Source: Nageia nagi (lineage: Eukaryota; Plantae; Pinophyta). From it: 64,000 nucleotides of DNA. The notes under the pieces are model-generated. The model saw nothing but the letters and a program-made list of their open reading frames with translations, was not told where the DNA came from and did no database searches. Position 1 is the stretch's first letter. Each line of letters opens with the position of its first letter. The stretch is from contig JBITNC010000001.1 of NCBI GenBank assembly GCA_050084985.1, positions 89,218,001-89,282,000 on the forward strand, given 5' to 3'. Made by a program: the position numbers and the translations under genes. Of this stretch, positions 10,551 through 62,690 are shown one piece after another.

Positions 10551-10580
10551 ATGGCGGCCTTGCTTGATAAAGGATGGGAG
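10551..10580 (+). CDS. SMO2: SMO2 coding exon 1
   Basis: ATG GCG GCC...TGG GAG|gtaatt = [10 protein letters not shown]. Confidence 0.85.
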
Positions 10581-13500
10581 GTAATTGTTTATGCTCTTAC
10601 TTCAGAAATTTGTATTTTAGTAAACATCATTATCGAATCTGTGGCATGATTTCAATCACCCACAAAATGTTTTTCAATCATCCAACTGAGAAATAAACAT
10701 GGATTCTTGGATGTGATGTGATGAATTTCACACCCAGAAGGGAATGCCATCAAATGACTAACTACACTTTAAACAATGGTATCCGATGGCATGGGTTCGC
10801 TCATCCTCATTGCATAGTTAGGCCTGCGATGTTTTTTTCCAAGCGCCCACATTATTGCCCAAAATATGTTCTGTTTTATTTTTTCATTACCTGGAATGAA
10901 ATGGTAACCACAAACTTCTTTAGGGGAGCAATGTATTTATTGCAATGAAAAATGCATGTGTTCTTGTGAATCGACTGTTGATTTAGGTCTCCAGGATCCT
11001 ATGGGGTGGTAACTTTAGACCACATCCTGGAAGGAACTCATTTTAGGAGCCCCAGTTTAGTATGCCTGTGTGATTTTGGGAATAATGGTGGGTTTTGAAC
11101 CCAAGCTGAGATGGTTGCTGGCTGTCTGACGTAGAGGGCATATTTAAGTTGGATATTGGAAGCTAGTCTTTGGGTAAATGTGAGTTTGCTTATTCCATCA
11201 TTTTTTTTTTCATGTTTTTGTTCTTTTTTTTCTTTCTCCATTTGTTGTCTTTAGCTATTTTCTTGTTAGTCAAACAATATGGAACATCTCATTTTCTTTA
11301 TGTAGAACATTGCATTAGAAATGACGCATTTTACTTAATAAAATAGTGAATCTCAGCAGAAAATATGGAGGAGATACTATTTCTGATTTTATGGGTAAAC
11401 TTTTGATGATGTGAATTATTTAATAAGTGGTATGACTGAATTTTTTTTTTGACAAGGATTATTACGACTTTTCCTAGTTATTGTTTATGTTACTTTATAA
11501 TATGTTTCCAAGTAGCTAAATTGCTAAAACTACATTTTTTTTGTTCTTGACATGTTCCTTTTATAACTTTCTTAATTTAGTTTTTCAATTGTTTTGCAGT
11601 ATCTGATTACAAATTTCACGGACTTTCAACTAGCTTCCATAGGCAGCTTCCTTCTTCACGAAGGCATTTTTTTCTTGTCTGGGCTTCCTTTCATAGCACT
11701 TGAGAGATATGGTCTTCTGGACCAGTACAAAATCCAGGTTTTTATTTTTTAGTTCATCATTCAATCTGGCATTGATTGTATAATGTTCTGTTTTATTTCT
11801 TGTTCAATTATCACTTACAAGGCTATGTTCTTTTGTTAAAAAAGGATGCTTAAATTCAACTATTTTGAATCTAATGAGGTACATATGGGTGATGCATTGG
11901 ATGATAACTTCTTGATCATAATTCTTAATTATGCATGATTAATACAATTTACCCTATTAATAATAATAAAAAATCTTAGTTATCCAGCATATAGTTATTG
12001 TCTTTTTAATACCAAAAAGTAATTAGATCATGTTAACTACCTATCACACTAGTAGTGTTCATCTTTATTTCTTATAAGTGGCCTTGCAGTATGATTTTTA
12101 CCTGTAAGGAAGGAATGAAATAGATCGATTGGTGGACAGAGATCTCAAAGATGTCCATTCATATCCCATCATTTCCTTTTATAATTCTTGGAGCTGATTG
12201 GATGCATAATTCTTTGTGGTTGAGAGGTGTAGGGGTTTAAGTAATGCTTTCAGATTGTAAATTGTGGAAAGAACCAATACATGCAGTTCTGCATGGTGTA
12301 TCATGCTTGAAATAATACTTCAAAAGTGAACAATTTAATTTCTAGAGTCTTTTGTGCAAGATTTCCTGTAGTATGTCAGATAAGAAACCATGGCTCAGGA
12401 AAAGGATTTCAGAAATCTACTATGCATCATTTGAAGGGGAGGTTCTGGCAGCCCTCATTATTTGCAACTACACACCGGTTGTTTTGTTAGTCGTAGATGC
12501 TCTGACTAAAATGGATAGTGATGTTTTGATGAGGAAAATGATATTCTGTTGTTTTTGTGGACTTCCTATTGTATAGAAAACTAAAAAATGTGAAACAACA
12601 GTGCCCTTCAAATGGTATATTGCAAGAACATACCACAAAAAGATTGCAACTATTGGTATGATCTTGATGTTGTTGATTGGTGGGAAGAATGAAGAAATGA
12701 ACACGATTTTTGAAGAATCAAAACATTGAACACAAAACAAAGATTGAACCAAAGCCCTATAATAATCTTATATCAGATAAGATCAACATAATTACAAATA
12801 ATGTAAGGAGTGTTTTTTAAATAGGTACAATAACTATGTAATTGACTCTCCTCCAATAAGTGAACACACATTTGATTAATCCAACTCCATATAATATACA
12901 ACCAACTGATAAGAGTCAAGCATGTTGGCAATAGTATTAATAAATGCATGGATGAAATTATGGTAACATTCAACACCCTCCCTTAGGTTGACATAAGGGG
13001 CCAAGAATATGCTCTCTATAATCTTCATTTGAAGAAGAGGAGGTGAAGGTATCATCAGTACAACACCTTCCCTTGGTAGTAGCTACCTTTGCTTTCAAAC
13101 GAACAAAAGTGACCTGTAGCAAAGGCTTTGTGAAGATGTCTACCAACTGATTTTTTGTAGGAATATACTGCAAATTGATATCACCATTTTGCACCTTTTT
13201 ACGTATGCAATGCATATCCACCTTTGTGTGCTTGGATTGCTGATGCAATGCTCGATTCTTGGCCATGTGGATGGTACTTCAATTATTAACCCATTTACTG
13301 TACGGTTTGACCTACCCACTTACACCCCACATTATTCTTGCCCTTCAACCGAGGAACCAACTCTCAAGTTCTGCTCTTCATTAAAGTATCATAAACTTTC
13401 AAGTTGCATTCCATGTGGGTTTTCCATGTGCCTTCTTGAAAGTAGAAGGATCATCCCTCCTTTAGCATTACACATGAAAGCAAAATTCACCCAATTTTTC

Positions 13501-16500
13501 TATCCATGAGTCTTACCCCTTGCTTGCCCTGTCCAATGACTTTTATGTAACCTCCTCCATAAGTCTCCTAGACCCCTATGATGATTTGAAGGCCTTTAAG
13601 AAACCTTAGTAGCCCCGTTCGAATGAGTATTGTGATGATGATCACCATGTCCATGTTCTCCATCATTGTTTATCTACTACACCTCCAATGTGAAGAGCCA
13701 TCCCATGACCATCACCATGCACACCATGAAGAGAATGAAGGCCAAAACAGCGAAACAATCATTCACCCAAGATCACAGAATTTGCAAAGCACTACAACGA
13801 AATGAAGTTCACACCAAAACTGATTGATTATTGCAGTGAATGCACCAAGAATAAATAGAATAGGTGCAAATAACTTACGGTGGCACACAGTGACAAACGG
13901 TGGCACACGGTGGCGAATCATAACAAGAAGTTGTTATGATTTTACATATGGTGGCAAATATCCTAGTGAACTTAAGTAACTAAATACTCAAGTAAATAAA
14001 ATAAATAAAACACTAATACCCCCCCTTAAGTGAAACTAGGAGGTAAAACAAGTGACACATAAAGATGAGTCCCGGCAACAAGGCCTGATTAGGTACTCAT
14101 TTACAATATCTAGCTGAAAGATGATGAAAAAACCACATGGGAAAAACCATCTATCAGCAAAGAAAGAAGAAAAAGAAAGAAAGAAAGAAAGAAAGGAAGA
14201 TGTCCTCAATCAACACCCCCCAAGGACAACTTCAGTCACCCCGAGCAAAGTTTGCAACTCAAGGAAGCGAGGCGATGCAAAGGATTTCGTGAAGATGTCG
14301 GCAATCTGCTGTTGAGTCGAAAGATACTCCAAGCTGAGAACCCCATCCTGAATATGCTGTCGAATGAAGTGCATGTGAACCTCAATATGCTTGGTTCGCT
14401 GATGCTCAACAGGATTGCGAGAAATATGAATTGCACTTTGGTTATCACAGAAGAGAACAGTAGGGTGATCCTGAGAAAAACCAAACTCAGCCAATAACTG
14501 ACGAAGCCAAAGAGCCTCCTGACTAGCTGTAACTGCTGCCTTGTACTCTGCCTCTGTAGATGATAATGCAATAGCCTGCTGCTTCTTGCATGACCAAGAT
14601 ATAGGAGAAGATCCAAGACAGAAAACATAACCAGAAGTGGAACGTCTATCATCAACTGAACCAGCCCAATCTGAATCAGTATAGCCCACTAACTCAGTAG
14701 AACCACGGCCATAGGATAAACCAAAGTGAGGTGTACCTCTCACGTATCGAAGAATGCGCTTGGCAGCTTGCCAATGACTATCATGAGGAGCCTGAGAGAA
14801 TCGAGAGAGTAAACCAACTGCATAGGAAATGTCAGGACGAGTATGGGTAAGATACAAAAGACTTCCTACCAATTGGCGATACAAGGTAGCATCACAAAGA
14901 GGAGAGGTGCAAGAAGAAGTCAATGTAACCCCAGATTGAAATGGCGTAGGAGAGGTCTTGCAATCAGTCATCCGAAAACGCTGAAGAAGATCCAAGGTAT
15001 ACTTGTGCTGACATAAAGAAATTTCTGTAGCAGTCTGATTGATCTGAAAACCAAGGAAGTAATGGGCCAATCCCAAATCTGTCATCTCAAATTGCGCTGA
15101 AAGAGAACGCTGAGCAGTCTGAATATGAGAAGAGGAACTCCCAGTGAGAAGCAAATCATCAACATAAAGAACAAGTATGGTAATGTCCTTCCCATCTCTC
15201 CAAATGTAAACGGTATTATTAGAGTAACACCTGACAAAACCAGTAGAAAGAAGAAAGGAATCCATCTTTGCATACCAAGCTCGAGGAGCTTGTTTGAGAC
15301 CATAGAGAGACTTTCGTAGTCTGCAAACAAGAGAGGCATCCTCAACAAAACCCAAAGGTTGCTCCATATAAATCTCCTCATGCAAATCTCCATGTAAGAA
15401 AGCACTCTTAACATTCATCTGAAAAATAGACCATCCCTGAGAGGCAGCAAGTGCAAGTACAAGCCAAAAGAGTATGAGATTTTTGTGCATAAAGGGAAAT
15501 TGTATGAGGCAATGGGACAAATTAGTTCAAGTATAAGTGAAAGCCTTTGGTTTCACTTAGATGGATGTAAAACCCCTTTTGAATGTATGGACAAACTTGC
15601 AAATTTGTTTGGTAAGGTTGATCACATAAGGTCTATGCAGCTTGAAGCAGAACTCACAGCACTTTCACCTGATGATTTCTCTACAATTGTTGACTACCTC
15701 ACAAAATTCAAGGAACTTCTCACACAATTAAAAGGAAGTGGTAAAAAGAAGGAAGACAAAGATTGTGTGTATCTCATTCTTTCAAAATTGAGGGGACCTT
15801 TCCAAATTTTTGCCTCTACATTTCTGTCTACTATGGATGCACTTGGGACAAATTTTACTTTGCCTAGCTTAGAAGAGTTTTGTGAAAGACTTACTAGGGA
15901 AGAGATCAAACTTTCCACTCTTGAGTCTTCTACCTCTTCTTCCAAAGCTTTAGTTGCATCCACTCCCAAAGGGAAAGGCAAATCTAAAGCTCAATCTAAA
16001 CCCACTGCAACTTCTCCCAAGCCAACTCCTTCTACAAAAAAGGAGAAATCTAACACCACTTGTACCTATTGTAAAAAGGAGGGTCATCCTGCCACTAGGT
16101 GTTGGAAAAAGTTGCAAGATTTAGAAGAAACCATAAAAAAAAATAAGGTTGTTGCCCCAAAAGAACATGGTAAAGCCCTTAATGTCCAAGGTCGATCTTC
16201 TAAATCTTTTTCACAAAAATGGGTTTTAGATTCTGGTGCTTCCCATCATATGACCTCTTCCCAAGAGTCATTCACCTTACTCTCTTCTAGTTCAACTTCT
16301 AGCATTGAGGTAGGAGACTCTACCTTTATTCCTGTTCAAGGACAAGGAGATATTGTGGTTGATGATGGTTGTATCTACAATGTATTGTATGTGCCCAATA
16401 TTTCAGCAAATCTTCTTTCCATCTATCAGATATGCACTTCAGGCACAGGGAAAATTGTTTTGTTTACCCCTCATGGAGCAGAGATTAGAAGTCTCAAGGA

Positions 16501-19500
16501 TCCACAATCACTTATTTGTCAAGGTGTTATTGATCATGATGCACGATTGTATTTCTTTGAGGGTTTTGATACTTCTTCAGGTTCATGCCTTGTTGCTCAT
16601 GCAGATTTTGAGAGTAAAATTTGGCATGAAAGATTTGGCCATCTTAATTATAGGTATTTGAAGGAGTTGAGCACTCATAATATGGTTTTGGGATTACCTA
16701 AGGTTTCCACCAGTGATGGTGTTTGTCCAGGTTGTGCACTTGGTAAACAACATCAAGATCCTTTTCCCAAAGGAAAATCCCATCGAGCATCTTCACCTTT
16801 GGAGTTGATTCATAGTGATTTGATGATTTTTCCCACACCTTCTTTCAAGGGAGCTAAGTATGCATTGCCATTTATAGATGATTTCTCAAGACGTACTTGG
16901 GTATATTTTCTCAAGTACAAAAGTGATGTTCTCTCTCACTTTAAAGTTTTCAAAGCTTTAGTTGAGAATCAGGCTTCCACATGCATCAAAAAGCTTCGTA
17001 CTGATAATGGGGGGGAGTACTTTAGCACTGAGTTTTCTGATTTTCTTACTGCACATGGGATTATACATCAACATTCTGTTCCTTACACACCTCAACAGAA
17101 TGGTGTGGCTGAGAGGAAGAATCGTACTTTGAAGGAGATGGCTAACTGCATGATGCATTCTAGAGAATTACCACCTATTTTTTGGGCTGAGGCAGTTAAT
17201 TGTGCTAATTATATTCAAAATCGTACACCCCATAGAGCTCTTGATCATATTACTCCAGAGGAGGCTTGGTCTGGAATTAAGCCTGATGTCTCATCTTTTC
17301 GAGTTTTTGGGAGTTATGCTTGGGCTCATATTCCGAAGAAGAAAAGAAAGGCTTTGGATAAGAAGAGTACACCACTCATTTTTGTTGGCTATTGTGAAGA
17401 CATGAAGGCTTATCGACTCATTGATCCTGCTACACATGATGTCTTCTTTCATACTCATGTACAATTTGATGAGCGACTTCATTGTTCTGACACTCCCTCT
17501 TCTTCTCCCCCTTCTCCTTCTCTTGATATTTCTCCTATGGTTGATATGATTGAGGATGATTCTAGCACTGCTCCTCCTTCACCAGTCACAGCACCTGCTA
17601 CCACAGTTGAGGCTTCTACATCCCTCGTTGATTCTACTAGTGCCCCTTTACCTAAGTGGGCACGAACTACTGTTGAGGAGGCTCTTCCTTTTATCCAGGA
17701 TCTTCCATCTTCTAGACGCCCTCCTTCCATTGGGACTGGCCTTGTTTGTCAGTCAATTTTGGGTGATCCCCAAACCTTTTCACAGGCACATGGAATACAG
17801 GAGTGGGATGATGCTATGAATGTTGAGTATTCTTCTTTGATGAAGAATCAGACTTGGGACTTAGTGCTTCTTCCCGAGGGAAGAAAGATGGTTCGTTGTA
17901 AGTGGGTTTACCGAACCAAGTATGCTGCTGATGGGTCTATTGATAAGTACAAAGCTCGTCTGGTAGCTAAGGGTTTTTCACAGGTTGAAGGTGTTGATTA
18001 CACTGAAACCTTTGCCCCTGTTGCTAAGATGAATTCTGTTCGGCTTGTACTTGCACTTGCTGCCTCTCAGGGATGGTCTATTTTTCAGATGGATGTTAAG
18101 AGTGCTTTCTTACATGGAGATTTGCATGAGGAGATTTATATGGAGCAACCTTTGGGTTTTGTTGAGGATGCCTCTCTTGTTTGCAGACTACGAAAGTCTC
18201 TCTATGGTCTCAAACAAGCTCCTCGAGCTTGGTATGCAAAGATGGATTCCTTTCTTCTTTCTACTGGTTTTGTCAGGTGTTACTCTGATAATACCGTTTA
18301 CATTTGGAGAGATGGGAAGGACATTACCATACTTGTTCTTTATGTTGATGATTTGCTTCTCACTGGGAGTTCCTCTTCTCATATTCAGACTGTTCAGCGT
18401 TCTCTTTCAGCGCAATTTGAGATGACAGATTTGGGATTGGCCCATTACTTCCTTGGTTTTCAGATCAATCAGACTGCTACAGAAATTTCTTTATGTCAGC
18501 ACAAGTATACCTTGGATCTTCTTCAGCGTTTTCGGATGACTGATTGCAAGACCTCTCCTACGCCATTTCAATCTGGGGTTACATTGACTTCTTCTTGCAC
18601 CTCTCCTCTTTGTGATGCTACCTTGTATCGCCAATTGGTAGGAAGTCTTTTGTATCTTACCCATACTCGTCTTGACATTTCCTATGCAGTTGGTTTACTC
18701 TCTCGATTCTCTCAGGCTCCTCATGATAGTCATTGGCAAGCTGCCAAGCGCATTCTTCGATACCTGAGAGGTACACCTCACTTTGGTTTATCCTATGGCC
18801 GTGGTTCTACTGAGTTAGTGGGCTATACTGATTCAGATTGGGCTGGTTCAGTTGATGATAAACGTTCCACTTCTGGTTATGTTTTCTGTCTTGGATCTTC
18901 TCCTATATCTTGGTCATGCAAGAAGCAGCAGGCTATTGCATTATCATCTACAGAGGCAGAGTACAGGGCAGCAGTTACAGCTAGTCAGGAGGCTCTTTGG
19001 CTTCGTCAGTTATTGGCTGAGTTTGGTTTTTCTCAGGATCACCCTACTGTTCTCTTCTGTGATAACCAAAGTGCAATTCATATTTCTCGCAATCCTGTTG
19101 AGCATCAGCGAACCAAGCATATTGAGGTTCACATGCACTTCATTCGACAGCATATTCAGGATGGGGTTCTCAGCTTGGAGTATCTTTCGACTCAACAGCA
19201 GATTGCTGACATCTTCACGAAATCCTTTGCATCGCCTCGCTTCCTTGAGTTGCAAACTTTGCTCGGGGTGACTGAAGTTGTCCTTGGGGGGTGTTGATTG
19301 AGGACATCTTCCTTTCTTTCTTTCTTTTTCTTCTTTCTTTGCTGATAGATGGTTTTTCCCATGTGGTTTTTTCATCATCTTTCAGCTAGATATTGTAAAT
19401 GAGTACCTAATCAGGCCTTGTTGCCAGGACTCATCTTTATGTGTCACTTGTTTTACCTCCTAGTTTCACTTAAGGGGGGGTATTAGTGTTTTATTTATTT

Positions 19501-22500
19501 TATTTACTTAAGTTCACTAGGATATTTGCCACCATATGTAAAATCATAACAACTTTTTGTTATGATTCGCCACCGTTTGTCACTGTGTGCCACCGTAAGT
19601 TATTTGCACCTATTCTATTTATTCTTGGTGCATTCACTGCAATAATCAATCAGTTTTGGTGTGAACTTCATTTCGTTGTAGTGCTTTGCAAATTCTGTGA
19701 TCTTGGGTGAATGATTGTTTCGCTGTTTTGGCCTTCATTCTCTTCATGGTATCAGAGAGGGTCGACCTCTGAATCTCCCTCAATTTGATCAGCAAATATG
19801 TGAGGGGGGATTGGCCTCTTTACGCCAATCCCCCCCTCATCTCCATTTTTTTTGTTGCTTTTTGATGTGTGGTAGATGACCTGTGTTTGTGCTCTTTGTG
19901 GAGAGGAAATCTACGTAGTTTGGTGGTTGTTCAGAATTTTGTGAAGGAGAAAGAGTGATGGATTTGTGGGAGGCCTAATCACCCTCTACCTGGCAGCATT
20001 TGGTTCTATTCCTTTGCAACAAGGCCATGAGTTTTTAACTCATGGGAATCAAATTGACGATGGTGGATATTGGTGATCTTTTGATTCTATTCCTTTGCAA
20101 CAAGGCCATGAATTTTAATTCATGGGAATCAAAATTGGCGATGGCGAGAGAGCCTTGTTAGCATTCAGTCTTGGAGCTTTTGGCGTCAGATTTCGTAGTT
20201 GGGTTCTCTCTCGCGTCTTTGTCTTGACAAGATCTGCATGCAGCGCGTGTTTTTCGGCCTGTGGGTTCAGGATCCCCACTCCCTGTGTTTGAGAGTCTTC
20301 TCTCGCTTCCAGCAGACGGCACCTTTGGCCGCGAGATCGTTTGCGTGATGCTCGTCTCCCTGCCGACCACCGCTGACTGTTGAAAACGTCCAGATCTGAT
20401 GCGCATCTTTCACTCAGCTCCTCGCGCAACCCTGCTCGCGGCCCTCCTGTTTGCCACTTCATTGTCGGCCCTCTTAAGCCGCTTGCGCGCGTTTCCGACT
20501 GCCTCTGCTCCTCCCACGATGGTTATGGCTGCCTCGCGATTTTTTCCCGCGTCCACGACGGCGTTGACTTTGCCTAGTCTTCGTTGCTCAGTTTCGTCGC
20601 GTTTTTCTCCTGCGCAGCCACTCGGAATGCCACGTTCGTTCGCTTGTTCGTCTCGGCGTTTCCTGCGTAGCCTGATGGTGGTCGTCGTTTCTCCCTCTTC
20701 GTTGGATGGCTTGCCTTCCTTCGATGGACTTGCATGGTGGCCCATTTTATGATTTGCTTGGAGATTTTTTATCAGCAGTTGCTCAAGAACGTCATAAAAA
20801 TGACAATCATGTTGTTTTTACATTTTTGTCAACCAAATTTACTTTTGATAGTAAATTTGGATACCCATTATCGAGCTACACCTTTTTGCTTTTTGTTTCG
20901 CTCGATTTGGAGGACAATTGAAGAAGTTGTGAAGGTCAGAAGAATTGGACCCCCACCAATTTCGAATTTAATTGGGGCAGCTTGTGTAACAGTCACGTTT
21001 TTCGAGATTGTGCTTTCATCGGGGCTCATTTTTGGGAACGGACACTTTCATGATGTTCCTCATTCCATTCCGATCGTTTTGAGTAGCTAGATGACCCATT
21101 TTCCCTTCCCCATCAACCGATAATCACAATTTGAAGTTCTGCCATTTAAATTTAATTAAATTCACTGTTTTTAATTTAATTAAAATTTTCTAATGTTTTG
21201 GGCATTAAAAATTTAATTTTTGCTCCAAAACGAATTAATTCCATAACTTTTGCAAACGGACTTCATTTTGAGTACCGTTTTTTGCATTGTGGAGCAGACT
21301 TCGAATAGTTTTTGATGAAATTGGTTGTAAGCCTAATTTATAAAGGCAAATTTTAAGGGGGGGCTTTATTTACAACTTTGTTTTGATAGGTTCCTAGGAG
21401 ACACATCATGAGGATCAAACATTTATTACAGTCTTGAATTTTTGTTCAACATCACTTTGGTTGATGTTTAGTACTGCATTATGGTTCCTCATGCTCCCAT
21501 CGACTTTTTGAAGTCGTAGTTAGTGGACTGTTTCTCTACTAAGTTGTGCGGTCATCAGCATCTTTCATGGGGGATCACTTCTTATTCTAGTTGGGAGGAC
21601 TTCTATTTGTATCCAGTTTTTTGCATCTTCCTCGTGTTGCATTCTCTTCATCGTGTTGAATCTTGGCACCAAGAGTTTTGGTGATCCATCTTCTTCGACA
21701 GTGTTCCTGAGTTCGACATCGACTTCCTTCATGGATCCTTGTACCATTTTTGGTACAGTGTTAATGGGTTCTAGGTACCATTTGGTGTGCCTTTTGCATC
21801 ATCAACAAGCTCTTCAAAGAAAAGTTCGTGCCCTAATTTCAGGTTGAGGGACTCTCTTTGTTTGTGTTGATCGAGTAGTGACTCTTTGATCCAGCTTTTG
21901 TTGGAGGTTCTTTGTTCTTCAGTTGCACATGTTCGTTATCTTTGGTCGCTCTACAACTTCTTTGTGCTTGATTCATTTTGTTAATGGGTACCTCATCAGG
22001 CCTTGTTGCCGGGACCCATATTGTACTAGTTTGCTTATGTCTACTACCTCCTAGCCTCGCTTAAAGGGGGGTGTTAGAGTTAGTTAAGCTTGCTAGGTTA
22101 GGGTATCTAACTTTAGAGTCCCTATTACCGTTGTTTTGTAAAACCATGTGCACGAACTTTTCTTTGAAGAGCTTGTTGGTGATGCAAAAGGCACACCAAA
22201 TGGTACCTAGAACCCATTAACACTGTACCAAAAATGGTACAAGGATCCATGAAGGAAGTCGATGTCAAACTCAGGAACACTGTCGAAGAAGATGGATCAC
22301 CAAAACTCATTGTGCCAAGATTCAACACGATGAAGAGAATGCAACACGAGGAAGATGCAAAAAACTGGATACAAATAGAAGTCCTCCCAACTAGAATAAG
22401 AAGTGATCCCCCATGAAAGATGCTGATGACCACATAACTTAGCAGAGAACAAGTCCACTAACTAGACTATCAAAAAGTCGACGAGAGCATGAGGAACAGT

Positions 22501-25500
22501 AATGCCGTACTAAACATCAACCAAAGTGATGTTGAACAAAAATTCAAGGCTGCAATAAGATTCGAACCTCATAATGTATCTCCTAGGAACCTGTTAAAAT
22601 AAAGTTGTAAATAGAGCCCCCTTTTGAAATTTGCCTTTATAAATTAGGCTTACAACCAATTTCATCAAAAACTATTCGAAGTCTGCTCCACAATGCAAAA
22701 AACGGCACTCAAAATGAAGTCCGTTCGCAAAAGTTATGGAATTAATTCGTTTTGGAGCAAAAATTAAATTTTTAATGCCCAAAACATTAGAAAAATTTAA
22801 TTAAATTAAAAACAGTGAATTTAATTAAATTTAAATGGCAGAACTCCAAATTGTGATTCATGATTGATGGGGGAGGCAAAATGGGTCATTCAGCTACTCA
22901 AAACGATCGGAATGGAATGAGGAACATCATGAAAGTGTCCGTTCCCAAAAATGAGCCCCGATGAAAGCACAATCTCGAAAAACGTGACTGTTACACAAGC
23001 TGCCCCAATTAAATTCGAAATTGGTGGGGGTTCAATTCTTCTGACCTTCACAACTTCTTCAATTGTCCTCCAAATCAAGCGAAACAAAAACAAAAAAGTG
23101 TAGCTCGATAATGGGTATCCAAATTTACTATCAAAAGTAAATTTGGTTGACAAAAAATGTGAAAAAACATGACTGTCATTTTTATGACGTTTTTGAGCAA
23201 CTGCTGAAAAAATCTTCAAGCAAATCATAAAATGGGCCACCATGCAAGTCCATCGAAGGAAGGCAAGCCATCCAACGAAGAGGGAGAAATGACGACCGAC
23301 ACACGGTTGTCCCAAGGCGGCAACAGCCAAACGAGGAGCACCAAAAGAGCTACGAAGATTGCAACGGAGGGAGGTCGGCAGTGGAGAGGAACGGCTACGC
23401 GAAATAGAATGGCGACGACGACCACCATCAGGCTACGCAGGAAACGCCGAGACGAACGAGCGAACGAACGTGGCATTCCGAGTGGCTGCGCAGGAGAAAA
23501 ACGCGACGAAACTGAGCAACGAAGACTAGGCAAAGTCAACGCCGTCGTGGAGCGGGAAAAAAATCGCGAGGCAGCCATAACCGTCGTGGGAGGAGCAGAG
23601 GCAGTCGGAAACGCGCGCAAGCGGCTTAAGAGGGCCGACAATGAAGCGGCAGACAGGAGGGCCGCGAGCAGGGTTGCGCGAGGAGCTGAGTGAAAGATGC
23701 GCATCAGATCTGGACGTTTTCAACAGTCAGCGGTGGTCGGCAGGGAGACGAGCATCACGCAAACGATCTCGCGGCCAAAGGTGCCGTCTGCTGGAAGCGA
23801 GAGAAGACTCTCAAACACAGGTAGTGGGGATCCTGAACCCACAGGCCGAAAAACACGCGCTGCATGTAGATCTTGTCAAGACAAAGACGCGAGAGAGAAC
23901 CCAGCTACGAAAATCTGACGCCAAAAGCTCCAAGACTGCCAAACTACGTAGATTTCCTCTCCACAAAGAGCACAAACATAGGTCATCTACCACACATCAA
24001 AAAGCAGCAAAAAAAATGGAGATGAGGGGGGGATTGGCGTAAAGAGGCCAATCCCCCCTCACAGATTTGCTGATTTCCTTTCATGGTATCAGAGCGGGTC
24101 GACCTCTGAATCTCCCTCAATTTGATCAGCAAATCTGTGAGAGGGCATCTCCATTATTTTTTTTTGCTGCTTTTTGATGTGTGGTAGATGACCTGTGTTT
24201 GTGCTCTTTGTGGAGAGGAAATCTACGTAGTTTGGTGGTTGTTCATGAATTTTGTGAAGGAGAAAGAGTGATGGATTTGTGGGAGGCCTAATCACCCTCT
24301 ACCTGGCAGCATTTGGTTCTATTCCTTTGCAACAAGGCCATGAGTTTTTAACTCATGGGAATCAAATTGACGATGGTGGATATTGGTGATCTTTTGATTC
24401 TATTCCTTTGCAACAAGGCCATGAATTTTAATTCATGGGAATCAAAATTGGCGATGGCGAGAGAGCCTTGTTAGCATTCAGTCTTGGAGCTTTTGGCGTC
24501 AGATTTTCGTAGTGGGTTCTCTCTCGCGTCTTTGTCTTGACAAGATCTGCATGCAACGCGTGTTTTTCGGCCTGTGGGTTCAGGATCCCCACTCCCTGTG
24601 TTTGAGAGTCTTCTCTCGCTTCCAGCAGACGGCACCTTTGGCCGCGAGATCGTTTGCGTGATGCTCGTCTCCCTGCCGACCACCGCTGACTGTTGAAAAC
24701 GTCCAGATCTGATGCGCATCTTTCACTCAGCTCCTCGCGCAACCCTGCTCGCGGCCCTCCTATCTGCTGCTTCATTGTCGCCCTCTTAAGCGCTTGCGTC
24801 GCGTTTCCGACTGCCTCTGCTCCTCCCACGACGGTTATGGCTGCCTCGCGATTTTTTCCCGCGTCCACGACGGCGTTGACTTTGCCTAGTCTTCGTTGCT
24901 CAGTTTCGTCGCTGTTTTTCTCCTGCGCAGCCACTCGGAATGCCACGTTCGTTCGCATCGTTCGTCTCGGCGTTTCCTGCGTAGCCTGATGGTGGTCGTC
25001 GTTTCTCCCTCTTCGTTGGATGGCTTGCCTTCCTTGATGGACTTGCATGGTGGCCCATTTTATGATTTGCTTGGAGATTTTTTATCAGCAGTTGCTCAAA
25101 AAACGTCATAAAAATGACAGTCATGTTTTTACATTTTTGTCAACCAAATTTACTTTTGATAGTAAATTTGGATACCCATTATCGAGCTACACCTTTTTGC
25201 TTTTTGTTTCGCTCGATTTGGAGGACAATTGAAGAAGTTGTGAAGGTCAGAAGAATTGGACCCCCACCAATTTCGAATTTAATTGGGGCAGCTTGTGTAA
25301 GTCACGTTTTTCGAGATTGTGCTTTCATCGGGGCTCATTTTTGGGAACGGACACTTTCATGATGTTCCTCATTCCATTCCGATCGTTTTGAGTAGCTAGA
25401 TGACCCATTTTGCCTTCCCCATCAACCGATAATCACAATTTGAAGTTCTACCATTTAAATTTAATTAAATTCACTGTTTTTAATTTAATTAAAATTTTCT

Positions 25501-28500
25501 AATGTTTTGGGCATTAAAAATTTAATTTTTGCTCCAAAACAAATTAATTCCATAACTTTTGCAAACGGACTTCATTTTGAGTACCGTTTTTTGCATTGTG
25601 GAGCAGACTTCGAATAGTTTTTGATGAAATTGGTTGTAAGCCTAATTTATAAAGGCAAATTTTAAGGGGGGGCTTTATTTACAACTTTGTTTTGATAGGT
25701 TCCTAGGAGACACATCATGAGGATCAAACATTTATTACAGTCTTGAATTTTTGTTCAACATCACTTTGGTTGATGTTTAGTACTGCATTATCATTCCTCA
25801 TGCTCCCATCGACTTTTTGATAGTCATAGTTAGTGGACTTGTTCTCTACTAAGTTGTGCGGTCATCAGCATCTTTCATGGGGGATCACTTCTTATTCTAG
25901 TTGGGAGGACTTCTATTTGTATCCAATTTTTTGCATCTTCCTCGTGTTGAATCTTGGCACAATGAGTTTTGGTGATCCATCTTCTTCGACAGTGTTCCTG
26001 AGTTCGACATCGACTTCCTTCATGGATCCTTGTACCATTTTTGGTACAGTGTTAATGGGTTCTAGGTACCATTTGGTGTGCCTTTTGCATCATCAACAAG
26101 CTCTTCAAAGAAAAGTTCGTGCCCTAATTTCAGGTTGAGGGACTCTCTTTGTTTGTGTTGATCGAGTAGTGACTCTTTGATCCAGCTTTTGTTGGAGGTT
26201 CTTTGTTCTTCAGTTGCACATGTTCATTATCTTTGGTCACTCTACAACTTCTTTGTGCTTGATTCATTTTGTTAATGGGTACCTCATCAGGCCTTGTTGC
26301 CGGGACCCATATTGTACTAGTTTGCTTATGTCTACTACCTCCTAGCCTTGCTTAAAGGGGGGTGTTAGAGTTAGTTAAGCTTGTTAGGGTATCTAACTTT
26401 AGAGTCCCTAAGTTAGTTATCATTTAATGTTTACGGTCATTGAATGTTTACGATCATTTAATGTTTACCGTTGTTTTGTAAAACCATGTGCACAATACCA
26501 TGTGCTCAAACCATGGTATTTGTTCTTGTAATGGTTTTACAAAACAACGGTAATAGGGACTCTAAAGTTAGATACCCTAACCTAGCAAGCTTAACTAACT
26601 CTAACACCCCCCTTTAAGCGAGGCTAGGAGGTAGTAGACATAAGCAAACTAGTACAATATGGGTCCCGGCAACAAGGCCTGATGAGGTACCCATTAACAA
26701 AATGAATCAAGCACAAAGAAGTTGTAGAGCGACCAAAGATAACGAACATGTGCAACTGAAGAACAAAGAACCTCCAACAAAAGCTGGATCAAAGAGTCAC
26801 TACTCGATCAACACAAACAAAGAGAGTCCCTCAACCTGAAATTAGGGCATGAACTTTTCTTTGAAGAGCTTGTTGATGATGCAAAAGGCACACCAAATGG
26901 TACCTAGAACCCATTAACACTGTACCAAAAATGGTACAAGGATCCATGAAGGAAGTCGATGTCGAACTCAGGAACACTGTCGAAGAAGATGGATCACCAA
27001 AACTCATGGTGCCAAGATTCAACACGATGAAGAGAATGCAACACGAGGAAGATGCAAAAAACTGGATACAAATAGAAGTCCTCCCAACTAGAATAAGAAG
27101 TGATCCCCCATGAAAGATGCTGATGACCGCACAACTTAGTAGAGAACAAGTCCACTAACTACGACTGTCAAAAAGTCGACGAAAGCATGAGGAATGATAA
27201 TGCAGTACTAAACATCAACCAAAGTGATGTTGAACAAAAGTTCAAGACTACAATAAGGTTTGATCCTCATGATGTGTCTCCGAGGAACCTATCAAAACAA
27301 AGTTGTAAATAAAGCCCCCCCTTAAAATTTGCCTTTATAAATTAGACTTACAACCAATTTCATCAAAAACTATTCGAAGTCTGCTCCACAATGCAAAAAA
27401 CGGCACTCAAAATGAAGTCCGTTTGCAAAAGTTATGGAATTAATTCGTTTTGGAGCAAAAATTAAATTTTTAAAGCCCAAAACATTAGAAAAATTTAATT
27501 AAATTAAAAATAGTGAATTTAATTAAATTTTAAATGGCAGAACTTCAAAACGTGATTATCGGTTGATGGGGAAGGCAAAATGGGTCATGCAGCTACTCAA
27601 AACGATCGGAATGGAATGAGGAACATCATGAAAGTGTCTGTTCCAAAAAATGAGCCCCGATGAAAGCACAATCTCGAAAAACGTGATTGTTACACAAGCT
27701 GCCCCAATTAAATTCGAAATTGGTGGGGGTTCAATTCTTCTGACCTTCACAACTTCTTCAATTGTCCTCCAAATCGAGCGAAACAAAAAGCAAAAAGGTG
27801 TAGCTCGATAATGGGTATCCAAATTTACTATCAAAAGTAAATTTGGTTGACAAAAATGTAAAAAAAAAACATGATTGTCATTTTTATGACGTTTTTGAGC
27901 AACTGCTGATAAAAAAATCTTCAAGCAAATCATAAAATGGGCCACCATGCAAGTCCATCGAAGGAAGGCAAGCCATCCAACGAAGAGGGAGAAACGACGA
28001 TCGACACACGGTTGTCCCAAGGCGGCAATAGCCAAACGAGGAGCACCAAAAGAGCTACGAAGATTGCAACGGAGGGAGGTCTGCAGTGGAGAAAGGCCGG
28101 CAATGGAGTGAGGCACGACCATGGCTAGCAGCAGAAGTCAATGCTGGCTAGACAGCGCACAGACTATGCAAACAACGGGGGAAGTCAACGCAACCGTCGT
28201 GGAAAGGAGCAGAAGGCAGCGGAAGGCGCTCGAGCGGCGTAAGGAGGCCGACAGCTAAGCGGCAGACAGGAGGGCCGCAAGCAAAAACGCGCGAGGAGCC
28301 GAGTAAAGGATGCGCGGCCAAATCTAGACAGGTTCAGCAGGCAGCAATGGACGGCAAGGTGCGAGGTGGTGAAATTATGGTAACATTCAACACCCTCCCT
28401 TAGGTTGACATAAGGGGCCAAGAATATGCTCTCTATAATCTTCATTTGAAGAAGAGGAGGTGAATGTATCATCAGTACAACACCTTCCCTTGGTAGTAGC

Positions 28501-31500
28501 TACCTTTGCTTTCAAACGAACAAAAGTGACCTGTAGCAAAGGCTTTGTGAAGATGTCTACCAACTGATTTTTTGTAGGAATATACTGCAAATTGATATCA
28601 CCATTTTGCACCTTTTTACGTATGCAATGCATATCCACCTTTGTGTGCTTGGATTGCTGATGCAATGCTCGATTCTTGGCCATGTGGATGGTACTTCAAT
28701 TATTAACCCATTTACTGTACGGTTTGACCTACCCACTTACACCCCACATTATTCTTGCCCTTCAACCGAGGAACCAACTCTCAAGTTCTGCTCTTCATTA
28801 AAGTATCATAAACTTTCAAGTTGCATTCCATGTGGGTTTTCCATGTGCCTTCTTGAAAGTAGAAGGATCATCCCTCCTTTAGCATTACACATGAAAGCAA
28901 AATTCACCCAATTTTTCTATCCATGAGTCTTACCCCTTGCTTGCCCTGTCCAATGACTTTTATGTAACCTCCTCCATAAGTCTCCTAGACCCCTATGATG
29001 ATTTGAAGGCCTTTAAGAAACCTTAGTAGCCCCGTTCGAATGAGTATTGTGATGATGATCACCATGTCCATGTTCTCCATCATTGTTTATCTACTACACC
29101 TCCAATGTGAAGAGCCATCCCATGACCATCACCATGCACACCATGAAGAGAATGAAGGCCAAAACAGCGAAACAATCATTCACCCAAGATCACAGAATTT
29201 GCAAAGCACTACAACGAAATGAAGTTCACACCAAAACTGATTGATTATTGCAGTGAATGCACCAAGAAATAAATAGAATAGGTGCAAATAACTTACGGTG
29301 GCACACAGTGACAAACGGTGGCACACGGTGGCGAATCATAACAAGAAGTTGTTATGATTTTACATATGGTGGCAAATATCCTAGTGAACTTAAGTAACTA
29401 AATACTCAAGCAAATAAAATAAATAAAACACTAATACCCCCCCTTAAGTGAAACTAGGAGGTAAAACAAGTGACACATAAAGATGAGTCCCGGCAACAAG
29501 GCCTGATTAGGTACTCATTTACAATATCTAGCTGAAAGATGATGAAAAAACCACATGGGAAAAACCATCTATCAGCAAAGAAAGAAGAAAAAGAAAGAAA
29601 GAAAGAAAGAAAGGAAGATGTCCTCAATCAACACCCCCCAAGGACAACTTCAGTCACCCCGAGCAAAGTTTGCAACTCAAGGAAGCGAGGCGATGCAAAG
29701 GATTTCGTGAAGATGTCGGCAATCTGCTGTTGAGTCGAAAGATACTCCAAGCTGAGAACCCCATCCTGAATATGCTGTCGAATGAAGTGCATGTGAACCT
29801 CAATATGCTTGGTTCGCTGATGCTCAACAGGATTGCGAGAAATATGAATTGCACTTTGGTTATCACAGAAGAGAACAGTAGGGTGATCCTGAGAAAAACC
29901 AAACTCAGCCAATAACTGACGAAGCCAAAGAGCCTCCTGACTAGCTGTAACTGCTGCCCTGTACTCTGCCTCTGTAGATGATAATGCAATAGCCTGCTGC
30001 TTCTTGCATGACCAAGATATAGGAGAAGATCCAAGACAGAAAACATAACCAGAAGTGGAACGTCTATCATCAACTGAACCAGCCCAATCTGAATCAGTAT
30101 AGCCCACTAACTCAGTAGAACCACGGCCATAGGATAAACCAAAGTGAGGTGTACCTCTCAGGTATCGAAGAATGCGCTTGGCAGCTTGCCAATGACTATC
30201 ATGAGGAGCCTGAGAGAATCGAGAGAGGAAACCAACTGCATAGGAAATGTCAGGACGAGTATGGGTAAGATACAAAAGACTTCCTACCAATTGGCGATAC
30301 AAGGTAGCATCACAAAGAGGAGAGGTGCAAGAAGAAGTCAATGTAACCCCAGATTGAAATGGCGTAGGAGAGGTCTTGCAATCAGTCATCCGAAAATGCT
30401 GAAGAAGATCCAAGGTATACTTGTGCTGACATAAAGAAATTTCTGTAGCAGTCTGATTGATCTGAAAACCAAGGAAGTAATGGGCCAATCCCAAATCTGC
30501 CATCTCAAATTGCGCTGAAAGAGAACGCTGAACAGTCTGAATATGAGAAGAGGAACTCCCAGTGAGAAGCAAATCATCAACATAAAGAACAAGGATGGTA
30601 ATGTCCTTCCCATCTCTCCAAATGTAAACGGTATTATCAGAGTAACACCTGACAAAACCAGTAGAAAGAAGAAAGGAATCCATCTTTGCATACCAAGCTC
30701 GAGGAGCTTGTTTGAGACCATAGAGAGACTTTCGTAGTCTGCAAACAAGAGAGGCATCCTCAACAAAACCCAAAGGTTGCTCCATATAAATCTCCTCATG
30801 CAAATCTCCATGTAAGAAAGCACTCTTAACATCCATCTGAAAAATAGACCATCCCTGAGAGGCAGCAAGTGCAAGTACAAGCCAAAAGAGTATGAGATTT
30901 TTGTGCATAAAGGGAAATTGTATGAGGCAATGGGACAAATTAGTTCAAGTATAAGTGAAAGCCTTTGGTTTCACTTAGATGGATGTAAAACCCCTTTTGA
31001 ATGTATGGACAAACTTGCAAATTTGTTTGGTAAGGTTGATCACATAAGGTCTATGCAGCTTGAAGCAGAACTCACAGCACTTTCACCTGATGATTTCTCT
31101 TACAATTGTTGACTACCTCACAAAATTCAAGGAACTTCTCACACAATTAAAAGGAAGTGGTAAAAAGAAGGAAGACAAAGATTGTGTGTATCTCATTCTT
31201 TCAAAATTGAGGGGACCTTTCCAAATTTTTGCCTCTACATTTCTGTCTACTATGGATGCACTTGGGACAAATTTTACTTTGCCTAGCTTAGAAGAGTTTT
31301 GTGAAAGACTTACTAGGGAAGAGATCAAACTTTCCACTCTTGAGTCTTCTACCTCTTCTTCCAAAGCTTTAGTTGCATCCACTCCCAAAGGGAAAGGCAA
31401 ATCTAAAGCTCAATCTAAACCCACTACAACTTCTCCCAAGCCAACTCCTTCTACAAAAAAGGAGAAATCTAACACCACTTGTACCTATTGTAAAAAGGAG

Positions 31501-34500
31501 GGTCATCCTGCCACTAGGTGTTGGAAAAAGTTGCAAGATTTAGAAGAAACCATAAAAAAAAATAAGGTTGTTGCCCCAAAAGAACATGGTAAAGCCCTTA
31601 ATGTCCAAGGTCGATCTTCTAAATCTTGTTCACAAAAATGGGTTTTAGATTCTGGTGCTTCCCATCATATGACCTCTTCCCAAGAGTCATTCACCTTACT
31701 CTCTTCTGGTTCAACTTCTAGCATTGAGGTAGGAGACTCTACCTTTATTCCTGTTCAAGGACAAGGAGATATTGTGGTTGATGATGGTTGTATCTACAAT
31801 GTATTGTATGTGCCCAATATTTCAGCAAATCTTCTTTCCATCTATCAGATATGCACTTCAGGCACAGGGAAAACTGTTTTGTTTACCCCTCATGGAGCAG
31901 AGATTAGAAGTCTCAAGGATCCACAATCACTTATTTGTCAAGGTGTTATTGATCATGATGCACGATTGTATTTCTTTGAGGGTTTTGATACTTCTTCAGG
32001 TTCATGCCTTGTTGCTCATGCAGATTTTGAGAGTAAAATTTGGCATGAAAGATTTGGCCATCTTAATTATAGGTATTTGAAGGAGTTGAGCACTCATAAT
32101 ATGGTTTTGGGATTACCTAAGGTTTCCACCAGTGATGGTGTTTGTCCAGGTTGTGCACTTGGTAAACAACATCAAGATCCTTTTCCCAAAGGAAAATCCC
32201 ATCGAGCATCTTCACCTTTGGAGTTGATTCATAGTGATTTGATGATTTTTCCCACACCTTTCAAGGGAGCTAAGTATGCATTGACATTTATAGATGATTT
32301 CTCAAGACGTACTTGGGTATATTTTCTCAAGTACAAAAGTGATGTTCTCTCTCACTTTAAAGTTTTCAAAGCTTTAGTTGAGAATCAGGCTTCCACATGC
32401 ATCAAAAAGCTTCGTACTGATAATGGGGGGGAGTACTTTAGCACTGAGTTTTCTGATTTTCTTACTGCTCATGGGATTATACATCAACATTCTGTTCCTT
32501 ACACACCTCAACAAAATGGTGTGGCTGAGAGGAAGAATCGTACTTTGAAGGAGATGGCTAACTGCATGATGCATTCTAGAGAATTACCACCTATTTTTTG
32601 GGCTGAGGCAGTTAATTGTGCTAATTATATTCAAAATCGTACACCCCATAGAGCTCTTGATCATATTACTCCAGAGGAGGCTTGGTCTGGAATTAAGCCT
32701 GATGTCTCATCTTTTCGAGTTTTTGGGAGTTATGCTTGGGCTCATATTCCGAAGAAGAAAAGAAAGGCTTTGGATAAGAAGAGTACACCACTCATTTTTG
32801 TTGGCTATTGTGAAGACATGAAGGCTTATCGACTCATTGATCCTGCTACACATGATGTCTTCTTTCATACTCATGTACAGTTTGATGAGCGACTTCATTG
32901 TTCTGACACTCCCTCTTCTTCTCCCCCTTCTCCTTCTCTTGATATTTCTCCTATGGTTGATATGATTGAGGATGATTCTAGCACTGCTCCTCCTTCACCA
33001 GTCACAGCACCTGCTACCACAGTTGAGGCTTCTACATCCCTCGTTGATTCTACTAGTGCCCCTTTGCCTAAGTGGGCACGAACTACTGTTGAGGAGGCTC
33101 TTCCTTTTATCCAGGATCTTCCATCTTCTAGACGCCCTCCTTCCATTGGGACTGGCCTTGTTTGTCAGTCAATTTTGGGTGATCCCCAAACCTTTTCACA
33201 GGCACATGGAATACAGGAGTGGGATGATGCTATGAATGTTGAGTATTCTTCTTTGATGAAGAATCAGACTTGGGACTTAGTGCTTCTTCCCGAGGGAAGA
33301 AAGATGGTTCGTTGTAAGTGGGTTTACCGAACCAAGCTGATGGGTCTATTGATAAGTACAAAGCTCGTCTGGTAGCTAAGGGTTTTTCACAGGTTGAAGG
33401 TGTTGATTACACTGAAACCTTTGCCCCTGTTGCTAAGATGAATTCTGTTCGGCTTGTACTTGCACTTGCTGCCTCTCAGGGATGGTCTATTTTTCAGATG
33501 GATGTTAAGAGTGCTTTCTTACATGGAGATTTGCATGAGGAGATTTATATGGAGCAACCTTTGGGTTTTGTTGAGGATGCCTCTCTTGTTTGCAGACTAC
33601 GAAAGTCTCTCTATGGTCTCAAACAAGCTCCTCGAGCTTGGTATGCAAAGATGGATTCCTTTCTTCTTTCTACTGGTTTTGTCAGGTGTTACTCTGATAA
33701 TACCGTTTACATTTGGAGAGATGGGAAGGACATTACCATACTTGTTCTTTATGTTGATGATTTGCTTCTCACTGGGAGTTCCTCTTCTCATATTCAGACT
33801 GTTCAGCGTTCTCTTTCAGCGCAATTTGAGATGACAGATTTGGGATTGGCCCATTACTTCCTTGGTTTTCAGATCAATCAGACTACAGAAATTTCTTTAT
33901 GTCAGCACAAGTATACCTTGGATCTTCTTCAGCGTTTTCGGATGACTGATTGCAAGACCTCTCCTACGCCATTTCAATCTGGGGTTACATTGACTTCTTC
34001 TTGCACCTCTCCTCTTTGTGATGCTACCTTGTATCGCCAATTGGTAGGAAGTCTTTTGTATCTTACCCATACTCGTCCTGACATTTCCTATGCAGTTGGT
34101 TTACTCTCTCGATTCTCTCAGGCTCCTCATGATAGTCATTGGCAAGCTGCCAAGCGCATTCTTCGATCCCTGAGAGGTACACCTCACTTTGGTTTATCCT
34201 ATGGCCGTGGTTCTACTGAGTTAGTGGGCTATACTGATTCAGATTGGGCTGGTTCAGTTGATGATAGACGTTCCACTTCTGGTTATGTTTTCTTCTTGGA
34301 TCTTCTCCTATATCTTGGTCATGCAAGAAGCAGCAGGCTATTGCATTATCATCTACAGAGGCAGAGTACAGGGCAGCAGTTACAGCTAGTCAGGAGGCTC
34401 TTTGGCTTCGTCAGTTATTGGCTGAGTTTGGTTTTTCTCAGGATCACCCTACTGTTCTCTTCTGTGATAACCAAAGTGCAATTCATATTTCTCGCAATCC

Positions 34501-61875: not shown

Positions 61876-62690
61876 AAATTTGAAATTTAATTTTAATGTC
61901 CATAAATGAACAAAAAAGCTCAATGGGATTGTAGAAGAGTACATATAAGAGGGCTAAGGAGGCACCTAATGTGACTCAAATGAGTAAAATGAAGAGAGAC
62001 AAAGAAAAATAACAATAGAAGTCTTCATAATGCCATATACAATAAACCAATCTATAGCAATAGGGTTGGTATGTGAAGGATCAAGAGGGTCCTCTAATAT
62101 TCAAGGTAAATAAGAGGCTCATCATGTTGTAATTTATAGGAGTAACCCTAGTGGGTTTAGTGGTCACACAATTATGAGTGGTCCTTCTAGTTTGTCAAGA
62201 ACATTTGTGTGTTATGGATATCAAAAAAGCATCACCCTCTATATTTAGTAAGCTTTCTACCTTAGATAGAGATTAATCACTAGTATATCTAGGTGCACAA
62301 CTAGCTTTAGACTTATCACATTCTTTTTTCAAGTAGAGGAGATTGAGAACTGAAAGCACACCATGGTTCCTAGTGACCTTGTAAGGGTTACCCATTATCA
62401 TATTACCACTAAACCCACCAGGGTTACTCCTTCTAATTGCAACATTATGAGCTTCTTTTTGATATCTAATGTTAGGGGAGCCTTTTGACTCTTCTCATAC
62501 CAACTCTTGTTATCAATTGGCTTGTTGGATATGGTGTTATGGAGACTCATAATACTATTTTTATGTATCTTCTTTTCATTCTTAAATGTTGGAGTCACTC
62601 TAGGAAATCTCTTGTTCCTCTTATATGTACTTTTGTACAATCCCATTGGTCATTTTTGGTCACCTGTGAACATTAATATTAAATTTTGAA
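61876..62690. repeat. Diverged inverted repeat, ~335-bp arms, ~145-bp spacer (possibly LINE-derived)
   Basis: caatgggattgta..agtacatataagagg...ggagtaaccct.gtgggtttagtggt at 61876..62212 matches the reverse complement of 62356..62690. Confidence 0.75.

Follow-up and report, generated by a model that had tools for sequence, protein, structure and literature searches.

The window analysed here, a 64,000-nucleotide stretch of the Nageia nagi genome, holds a gene for a sterol C4-methyl oxidase 2-like protein (SMO2) on the plus strand, and the second intron of this gene contains a large nested retroelement insertion. The first coding exon (10551-10580) was placed by tblastn with P0001 and by a spliced joint to 11600 in two sequencing runs (X1 and X9), exon 2 (11600-11737) matches PF04116 proteins, with 87% to P0001, and is covered by an X1 contig with 0 other letters, and exons 3-7 lie with short introns at 54122-55581 (tblastn and sequence). 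Intron 2 has GT..AG ends and measures 42,384 nt (11738-54121; tblastn and sequence), and the loose end of X1 contigs at 11737 is the start of exon 3. Exons identified by tblastn thus stand on both sides of all hairpins and retroelement pieces described below. X1 contigs join exon 1 to exon 2 and pass from 11737 into exon 3, a spliced mRNA that could stem from an allele without the insertion. Long introns filled with transposable elements (TEs) are reported as ordinary among gymnosperms, with little effect of atypical intron length on transcript accuracy (PMC9364684).

We compared the window with assembled contigs, which carry no strand, from seven of 23 listed runs (X1, X2, X4, X6, X7, X8 and X9), whose status as 'RNA-like' or 'DNA-like' is an automated guess; X1 may come from the plant from which the window was assembled. 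The comparison covered two stretches, with the junctions at 22153, 23938, 24074, 35178 and 35667 falling outside them, and X1 contig cover has gaps at 12078-13093, 28296-28532 and, by arithmetic, 33354-33480.

The insertion is a unit of roughly 22 kb (13727-35667), longer than the span of 13727-28369 assigned to it by the initial annotation, with long terminal repeats (LTRs) in the same direction at both ends and a 5-bp target-site duplication (TSD) at 13722-13726 and 35668-35672. The outer element lies on the minus strand; its 5' LTR (35383-35667, from LTR comparison) and the LTR at the other end (13727-14018) differ by 0 substitutions and one 7-nt indel. Next to the 5' LTR are the primer-binding site (PBS, at 35382) and the first 200 nt of this element's leader (35179-35382, minus strand, 82% to the partner leader introduced below), the target of a nested insertion. 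The recipient was an old Copia relic on the minus strand (12953-13726; 41-45% to Copia proteins by tblastn), the last 5 nt of which form the left target-site copy. We sought protein homology of this relic, or a second LTR of it, to the right of the insertion and found neither, which leaves the TSD as the basis for continuity of the empty site. Two related species apparently lack the insertion at this site, and it is a very young natural case.

Two large Copia hairpins lie within the unit. In hairpin 1, the first arm (13727-15465, minus strand; sequence comparison) carries part of the reverse transcriptase (RT), RNaseH, the 3'UTR, the polypurine tract (PPT) and the LTR of the outer element, the loop (15466-18041, plus strand; Pfam on the open reading frame at 15398-19297) carries a 5'-truncated gag, protease, integrase and the RT start of an inner element, and the second arm (18042-19746, plus strand; alignment) runs through RT, RNaseH and an LTR of a shorter variant (about 19480-19746), followed by a primer-binding site. 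These arms (1,739 and 1,705 nt), which cover RT-RNaseH-3'UTR-LTR with an RVT_2 match, are 99% alike, with 10 substitutions, 3 indels (8, 16 and 10 nt) and a longest perfect run of 278 nt. The arms of hairpin 2, aligned at 29144-30883 (minus strand) and 33451-35178 (plus strand, ending exactly at the CA end of the LTR), differ by 9 substitutions and 9 indels, 6 of them of 1 bp. Both pairs are about 1.7 kb long and share 1,384 (hairpin 1) and 1,372 (hairpin 2) perfect 24-mers, and in 20 of 20 block-shuffled versions of the intron the longest inverted match was just 18-53 nt. Near-identical inverted RT-RNaseH-LTR arms of this length in the SMO2 intron, with a second set at 29144-35178, are what the initial annotation had described, and these inverted repeats are likely, judged from their sequence, to give double-stranded RNA.

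Between the hairpins lie four pieces of a non-coding partner element (0 of 4 of its open reading frames match Pfam) that alternate in orientation: c1 (19747-22153, plus strand), with PBS, internal region, PPT and the start of its own LTR; c2 (22154-24074, minus strand), truncated on both sides; c3 (24075-26531, plus strand), with a private 19-bp deletion; and c4 (26532-28369, minus strand), 5'-truncated and more divergent. They form the further inverted arms of 1.5-2 kb that had been noted before (20166-21831 against 22150-23938, and 24671-26531 against 26532-28359), less perfect than the Copia arms because their aligned parts hold 44 substitutions and 11 indels in 1,152 nt and 34 and 10 in 1,416 nt, respectively. 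Copy-specific variants between the partner arms rule out a single-molecule fold-back artefact for them. One X1 contig (865 nt) agrees with c3 at all 8 of the listed sites and shares the 19-bp deletion, and another contains the LTR-PBS-partner junction (loose end at 29140); the first kilobase of c3 has 11 one-base indels against c1.

The domain order of the main family is that of Ty1/Copia elements (Retrotran_gag_2, Pol_BBD, gag_pre-integrs, rve, SH3 and RVT_2 by Pfam), as are its LTRs, PBS, PPT and 5-bp TSD, with LTR termini TA..CA rather than TG..CA. As a correction to the initial annotation, no copy here is complete: those on the plus strand are without the 5' LTR, the leader and roughly 23 gag codons (against P0005), those on the minus strand are without gag-integrase, and none has the full set of 5' LTR, leader and entire gag-pol in a single orientation.

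This arrangement suggests an order of events that starts from the outer element on the minus strand, its two LTRs still at the ends of the unit. A second copy would then have inserted in reverse, 200 nt behind the primer-binding site of the outer element, and the junction with its LTR end at 35178/35179 is clean. Long palindromes are unstable, and an off-centre deletion may have taken both the 5' LTR and leader of the inner copy and the gag-integrase of the outer one, which would leave 1.7-kb arms around a 2.6-kb loop; a limited literature search found no paper on central deletion of palindromes. Finally, a 6.8-kb block (28370-35178), a repeat of the first block, was probably produced by duplication and includes 774 nt of host flank, with the four partner fragments between the blocks. 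The flank copy (28370-29143, minus strand) aligns to 12953-13726 with 1 substitution in 774. The last LTR of the first block is a different variant from that of the second block, which plain duplication leaves unexplained. Pure autointegration of one cDNA was ruled out by reasoning, as it yields no three LTRs plus duplicated RT-RNaseH.

Several of these features could also mean that just one hairpin is real, with assembly having joined two haplotypes or adjacent loci in tandem, or tangled repeats, to give the second block and the pile of partner pieces. The repeated flank comes from outside the TSD and recurs inside it, four fold-backs fall within 9 kb, 7 of the 13 inter-block indels are of 1 bp, and X1 contradicts 4 letters or indels of the second block: the extra letters at 29267 and 31100 are absent from X1, which has three more at 32257, as expected of consensus-type errors. 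Among the contigs listed, none reaches 31 nt to each side of 15465, 26531, 28369 or 30883, and X1 and X4 contigs exit at 26531 into the partner's normal LTR, not across the fold-back. Against such an assembly fault, the partner arms derive from different copies (c2 and c4 have an insertion in common), unlike a single fold-back read, X1 contigs contain deletions private to one copy (the 7-bp one of block 2 and the 19-bp one of c3), there are no N gaps, and 19 of the 28 inter-block substitutions are transitions. Partial mis-assembly, kept in view by the consensus errors of the second copy, is in our estimate unlikely.

Exploring the X1 contigs, we found a ring that spans the loop of the second hairpin. 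Two contigs (1,576 and 967 nt), each overlapping the other at either end, form a closed path of 2,483 nt by way of a joint from 33353 to 30873; this path covers almost the whole loop (30873-33353), with 108 nt on the short side of the joint and 8 letters, a direct repeat, that fit both sides. Canonical back-splicing is ruled out, as none of the 9 possible cuts has a GT-AG, GC-AG or AT-AC signal on either strand. Hairpin 2 contains 373 pairs of direct repeats of at least 8 nt; by a post hoc count, only 2 of these pairs have both members within 100 nt of the stem base, one of which is used by the joint. Past the repeat, the ring holds 3 further letters of the fold-back junction, at a point where the gag of a related species takes another course (loose end of X8 at 15467), a small but specific support for that junction. 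It keeps the window's letter at five sites where the dominant X9 contigs differ (16007, 16048, 16328, 16619 and 16709), and at the 12 differences between the two loops it matches the second copy nine times, including the 7-bp deletion, and the first copy three times; since at 6 of these 9 sites the second copy's letter is also the one common in the family, the ring may be a mosaic of both copies. RNA-like contigs appear to come from the second hairpin loop, and ring ends at the stem base would fit a folded hairpin.

The nature of the ring can be read in three ways. A true circular RNA is our tentative preference, a reverse-transcriptase switch is a somewhat weaker candidate, and a tandem or circle at the DNA level seems improbable. 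Joints with short homologous sequences are reported to be commonly filtered as template-switch artefacts (PMC4132752), and a limited literature search found no paper on a circularised retrotransposon hairpin loop. The joint occurs in one of four RNA-like runs (X1) and in none of three DNA-like runs, one of them from the same sample; contigs lose rare variants, and two of these DNA-like runs come from other species and were read at about half. The occurrence in a single RNA-like run and the lack of splice signals suit the view that the locus is real DNA yet inert debris, methylated and quickly passed by the polymerase with no meaningful double-stranded RNA, the ring being a library artefact or a tandem or circular DNA derivative from elsewhere; the ordinariness of TE-filled gymnosperm introns noted above points the same way. 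This view, which we hold to be rather improbable, has to reckon with a contig path that is unbroken through the joint, carries locus-type letters and ends at the stem base, and with the absence of the joint from the DNA-like runs, as far as their contigs allow.

If the hairpins are transcribed, an internal LTR is somewhat favoured as the driver, SMO2 read-through is a possible one and any other source is very unlikely. Loop and arm contigs with locus-type letters are present in X1, at a contig depth of about 15 (loop) and 3.5 (arms) against 61 for the exons, figures that are no measure of expression rank; X2, X4 and X6 have almost no contig cover of the loop. Inside the insertion, two LTRs with primer-binding sites are directed into the second hairpin, and the mostly second-copy letters of the ring suggest that the RNA comes from the locus and is driven by an internal LTR and not by SMO2, since read-through would pass both loops whereas the contigs favour the second. 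Of the steady intronic source of double-stranded RNA initially proposed, the arms in a spliced intron, their capacity for long duplexes and the locus-type RNA-like contigs stand, and SMO2 as its driver is the less favoured reading.

The proposal went further, to SMO2 read-through as a steady supply of hairpin RNA acting in trans to silence both the Copia family and its partner. Long, 99% alike arms that include the LTR, splicing of SMO2 across the intron in X1, the existence of killer loci driven by a host promoter (10.1101/2020.01.07.897926) and the reportedly small effect of very long gymnosperm introns on transcript accuracy (PMC9364684) all speak for it. Set against these are the bias towards one loop and a family that is large and diverse in relatives (7,015 and 7,531 contigs, most 90-99% alike), for which many other small-RNA sources would be expected; X7 and X8 contig depth is about 10,000 in element bins against about 5, which is no copy count. 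A family LTR/3'UTR contig is, moreover, present in the RNA-like run X2, which may or may not carry the insertion. In Arabidopsis, a nested hairpin of the Copia element EVD was present in one of two silenced lines and was not established as the trigger (PMC11624286). We regard SMO2-driven silencing of this kind as very doubtful, and family-wide silencing by this locus is probably overstated.

We instead favour, with a probability of about 0.48, a 22-kb nested insertion of one Copia element backwards into a sister copy, whose hairpins are likely transcribed, most probably from an inner LTR, and whose hairpin RNA, presumably cut in the arms by Dicer into RNAs of 21-24 nt, would add small RNAs to the silencing of the family without being its single switch. 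A bolder version, in which the stem yields small RNAs against the family LTR and RT while the loop is set free and closes, with no splice signals, as a stable circular gag-protease-integrase RNA of 2.5 kb, making the locus a natural Copia killer with a ring as its footprint, strikes us as a long shot. Because the locus is young, has arm-private letters (14541, 14743, 15114, 15220 and 15415 in one arm of hairpin 1; 18672, 18861, 19207, 19426 and 19556 in the other) and is apparently missing at this site in two relatives, small-RNA and methylation signals can be assigned to it. Among such small RNAs the proportion of 21-nt reads would be expected to exceed that of flowering plants (PMC7111516). 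Should the ring prove to be real RNA, closed loops could be used to search total-RNA data for transcribed TE hairpins; otherwise the locus amounts to commonplace nested TE debris within a long gymnosperm intron, plus some noise from assembly.

By analogy, the locus may work like maize Mu killer and Ac killer and like antisense nested insertions of EVD. It shares with killer loci a long inverted duplication of TE sequence, and Mu killer and the Ac killer alleles p1-ww-id1/id4 are likewise described as natural inverted duplications of a partial TE, with kilobase-long arms that include terminal or promoter sequence (10.1101/2020.01.07.897926; PMC10827316), sited where a host or TE promoter can transcribe them; Ac killer id4 is apparently driven by its own promoter (10.1101/2020.01.07.897926). 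For these maize loci, double-stranded RNA, siRNAs and heritable trans-silencing of low-copy active families are reported, whereas the present locus, known from sequence and contigs, belongs to a large LTR retrotransposon family, is intronic and has arms made of the 3' part plus LTR. Arabidopsis IR71 is similarly a long fold-back that Pol II can transcribe, with RDR-independent siRNAs expected (PMC10827316); the fold-back here differs in being intronic and made of a young retroelement, with a siRNA output that is predicted. The ring resembles the back-spliced circular RNAs of maize CRM1 as non-collinear, ring-like RNA from an LTR retrotransposon body, and whereas those circles of 277-607 nt were validated by RNase R, northern blots and AFM (PMC7010299), the ring here, known from contigs of a single run, corresponds to a hairpin loop and is 2,483 nt long. 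To explain how plants first silence an LTR retrotransposon family, antisense nested hairpins were put forward in the case of EVD, though not tested there as a trigger (PMC11624286). There too a Copia element inserted backwards into a sister copy, with predicted LTR hairpins and a proposed role in silencing; the present locus adds a central deletion that left 1.7-kb arms, a block duplication and partner fragments, and offers a natural allele in a host intron.

SMO2 has exons at 10551-10580 and 11600-11737 and a downstream group from 54122 onward, and its intron 2, of 42,384 nt, carries long inverted Copia arms. Self-comparison confirmed these where the initial annotation had placed them (13727-15465 on the minus strand and 18042-19746 on the plus strand) and also found a direct duplication of 6.8 kb (block 1, 12953-19746; block 2, 28370-35178) with a second hairpin, whose arms lie at 29144-30883 (minus) and 33451-35178 (plus). 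In hairpin 1, 10 substitutions and 3 indels separate the arms; in hairpin 2, 9 substitutions and 9 indels do so, six of the indels being single-base. The two blocks are separated by 28 substitutions, of which 19 are transitions, and by 13 indels. Across 20 block-shuffles of the intron, the longest inverted match ranged from 18 to 53 nt; each arm pair shares about 1,380 perfect 24-mers, and the LTR is part of the arms.

The locus had been delimited as 13727-28369, which is too small, as the unit is bounded by same-direction minus-strand LTRs (13727-14018 and 35383-35667) that differ by one 7-nt indel and no substitution, carry an identical 5-bp sequence on their outer sides, and have a primer-binding site (PBS) adjoining the right-hand copy. 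These LTRs end in TA..CA rather than TG..CA, with the ends fixed by the adjoining polypurine tract (PPT) and the target duplication; a rare type of Copia element with non-canonical termini of this kind is known. On the minus strand, this outer element reads LTR, PBS, 200-nt leader, inverted inner copy, RT part, RNaseH and LTR, with the inner copy joined to the leader exactly at its LTR end (35178/35179). The plus-strand ORF has its domains in Copia order and its nearest named relatives in Taxus and Pinus, which makes a gymnosperm host likely, and lacks about 23 N-terminal residues relative to the Taxus protein. Between the blocks lie four non-coding partner-element pieces, alternating in orientation and derived from different copies, the first joined to the variant LTR that it follows by a regular LTR-PBS junction. 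Ahead of the PPT, Copia and partner have 107 nt in common (76%; 14009-14109 and 21975-22081), and they also share part of the leader (82%; 35179-35327 and 20197-20349), as would be expected for a non-autonomous partner.

Elsewhere in intron 2 are hAT-like transposase remains (zf-BED, DUF659; 44254-47116, minus strand). Head-to-tail duplications occur at 40817-41190 (188 nt), 42405-42911 (144 nt) and 43380-43809 (215 nt), the last 100% identical and either real or an assembly slip. Further retroelement remains (an RT-like ORF, an aspartyl protease match, PBS-like sites) and a 290-nt, 75% inverted repeat downstream of SMO2 account for 170-592, 50250, 51592-51984, 53078 and 61877-62692.

In the simplest history, the inner Copia would have inserted antisense into the outer copy, followed by an off-centre deletion that left the junction present at both 15465 and 30883. 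Long palindromes are prone to central deletion; a limited literature search found no publication supporting this. The duplicated block takes in 774 nt of host flank (one substitution), so the duplication either postdates the insertion or arose in assembly. In two related species, contigs (DNA-like runs X7 and X8) follow the intron from 12014 to about 13677 and continue for 517 and 1,005 letters unlike the LTR, consistent, on the left side of the site, with an empty site in both.

We checked the layout against contigs from public runs. Assembly may have produced part of it: the RNA-like run X1 differs from block 2 at 29267, 31100, 31426 and 32257, the first kilobase of the third partner piece (24075-26531) differs from the first piece (19747-22153) by 11 one-base indels, the last LTR is not alike in the two blocks, and contigs of X1 and of X4, also RNA-like, continue at 26531 into the partner's normal LTR. 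Against this stand the target duplication and clean LTR ends, the departure of the related species' contigs just before the insertion, and the presence in X1 of the block 2-specific 7-bp deletion, the third piece's 19-bp deletion and its letters at 8 of 8 listed sites, and the LTR-PBS-partner junction. We consider one Copia hairpin real with a probability of about 0.8, and the entire layout somewhat better than an even bet.

Two X1 contigs, of 1,576 and 967 nt, share 30 nt at each end and together form a closed 2,483-nt ring, joined from 33353 back to 30873, that spans nearly all of the hairpin 2 loop (30884-33450), its left end 11 nt within the stem and its right end about 90 nt before the second arm. 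The ring carries the block 2 letter at 9 of 12 loop differences and the block 1 letter at 3; six of the nine are the common family letter and three (16289, 17098 and the 7-bp deletion) are not. It also keeps the window's letter at five sites where the dominant contigs of X9, a DNA-like run of the same sample, differ. X1 may come from the window's own source plant, so the ring gives no independent support. The ring may be a true circular RNA; retrotransposon circular RNAs are reported from maize CRM1 (PMC7010299), those described there being far shorter, and a limited literature search found no publication on a circularised TE hairpin loop. Its joint sits on an 8-nt direct repeat, with no splice signals at any of nine cuts on either strand, and may also come from reverse transcriptase switching at the stem base, as joints with short homology are reported as a known artefact class (PMC4132752). 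Among the hairpin's 373 repeat pairs of this kind, only 2 have each end no farther than 100 nt from the stem base (a post hoc count), and the three letters past the repeat match the fold-back junction, where gag in one related species runs on otherwise. Such a switch would still imply folded plus-strand RNA. A DNA-level tandem or circle may also explain the ring, whose joint was found in one of four RNA-like runs and in the contigs of none of three DNA-like runs.

The 8-nt repeat pair is also present in block 1 (15455, 17945), yet the ring is mainly block 2, which points to a promoter of its own for block 2 or to a missing block 1 in the X1 plant. The three candidate promoters would be that of SMO2, that of the plus-strand LTR whose end lies at 19746, and that of the outer LTR (35383-35667). 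X1 contigs have SMO2 exon 1 spliced to exon 2 and exon 2 running on into exon 3, and this spliced mRNA may come from an insertion-free allele. The exon 1-exon 2 joint also occurs in X9, so that either the kind of that run is doubtful or a processed SMO2 copy is present. We lean slightly towards an internal LTR as the driver, since both LTRs would reach hairpin 2 without first crossing loop 1, which fits the ring letters, and one Ac killer is apparently transcribed from its own promoter (10.1101/2020.01.07.897926); SMO2 is a possible but less favoured driver. The initial observation of intronic hairpin arms holds, and its reading as an SMO2-driven silencer finds partial support.

With so many perfect 24-mers and the LTR in the arms, any transcript across both would be a predicted Dicer substrate, for which endogenous inverted repeats provide a reported precedent (PMC10827316). 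A dominant trans-silencer role is unlikely a priori, because 7,015 and 7,531 distinct contigs match the Copia element in the two related species, gymnosperms are reported to have both 21-nt and 24-nt silencing routes (PMC9364684; PMC7111516), and the study of the nested EVD hairpin left its trigger role untested (PMC11624286). That the locus is a Copia killer whose loop turns into circular RNA is an improbable candidate. From sequence and contigs, the locus would function in the manner of endogenous TE hairpins such as Mu killer, Ac killer or nested EVD, and a further LTR-LTR inverted repeat (34888-35178 and 35383-35667; 290 bp, 200-nt spacer) has the same configuration as that proposed for EVD.
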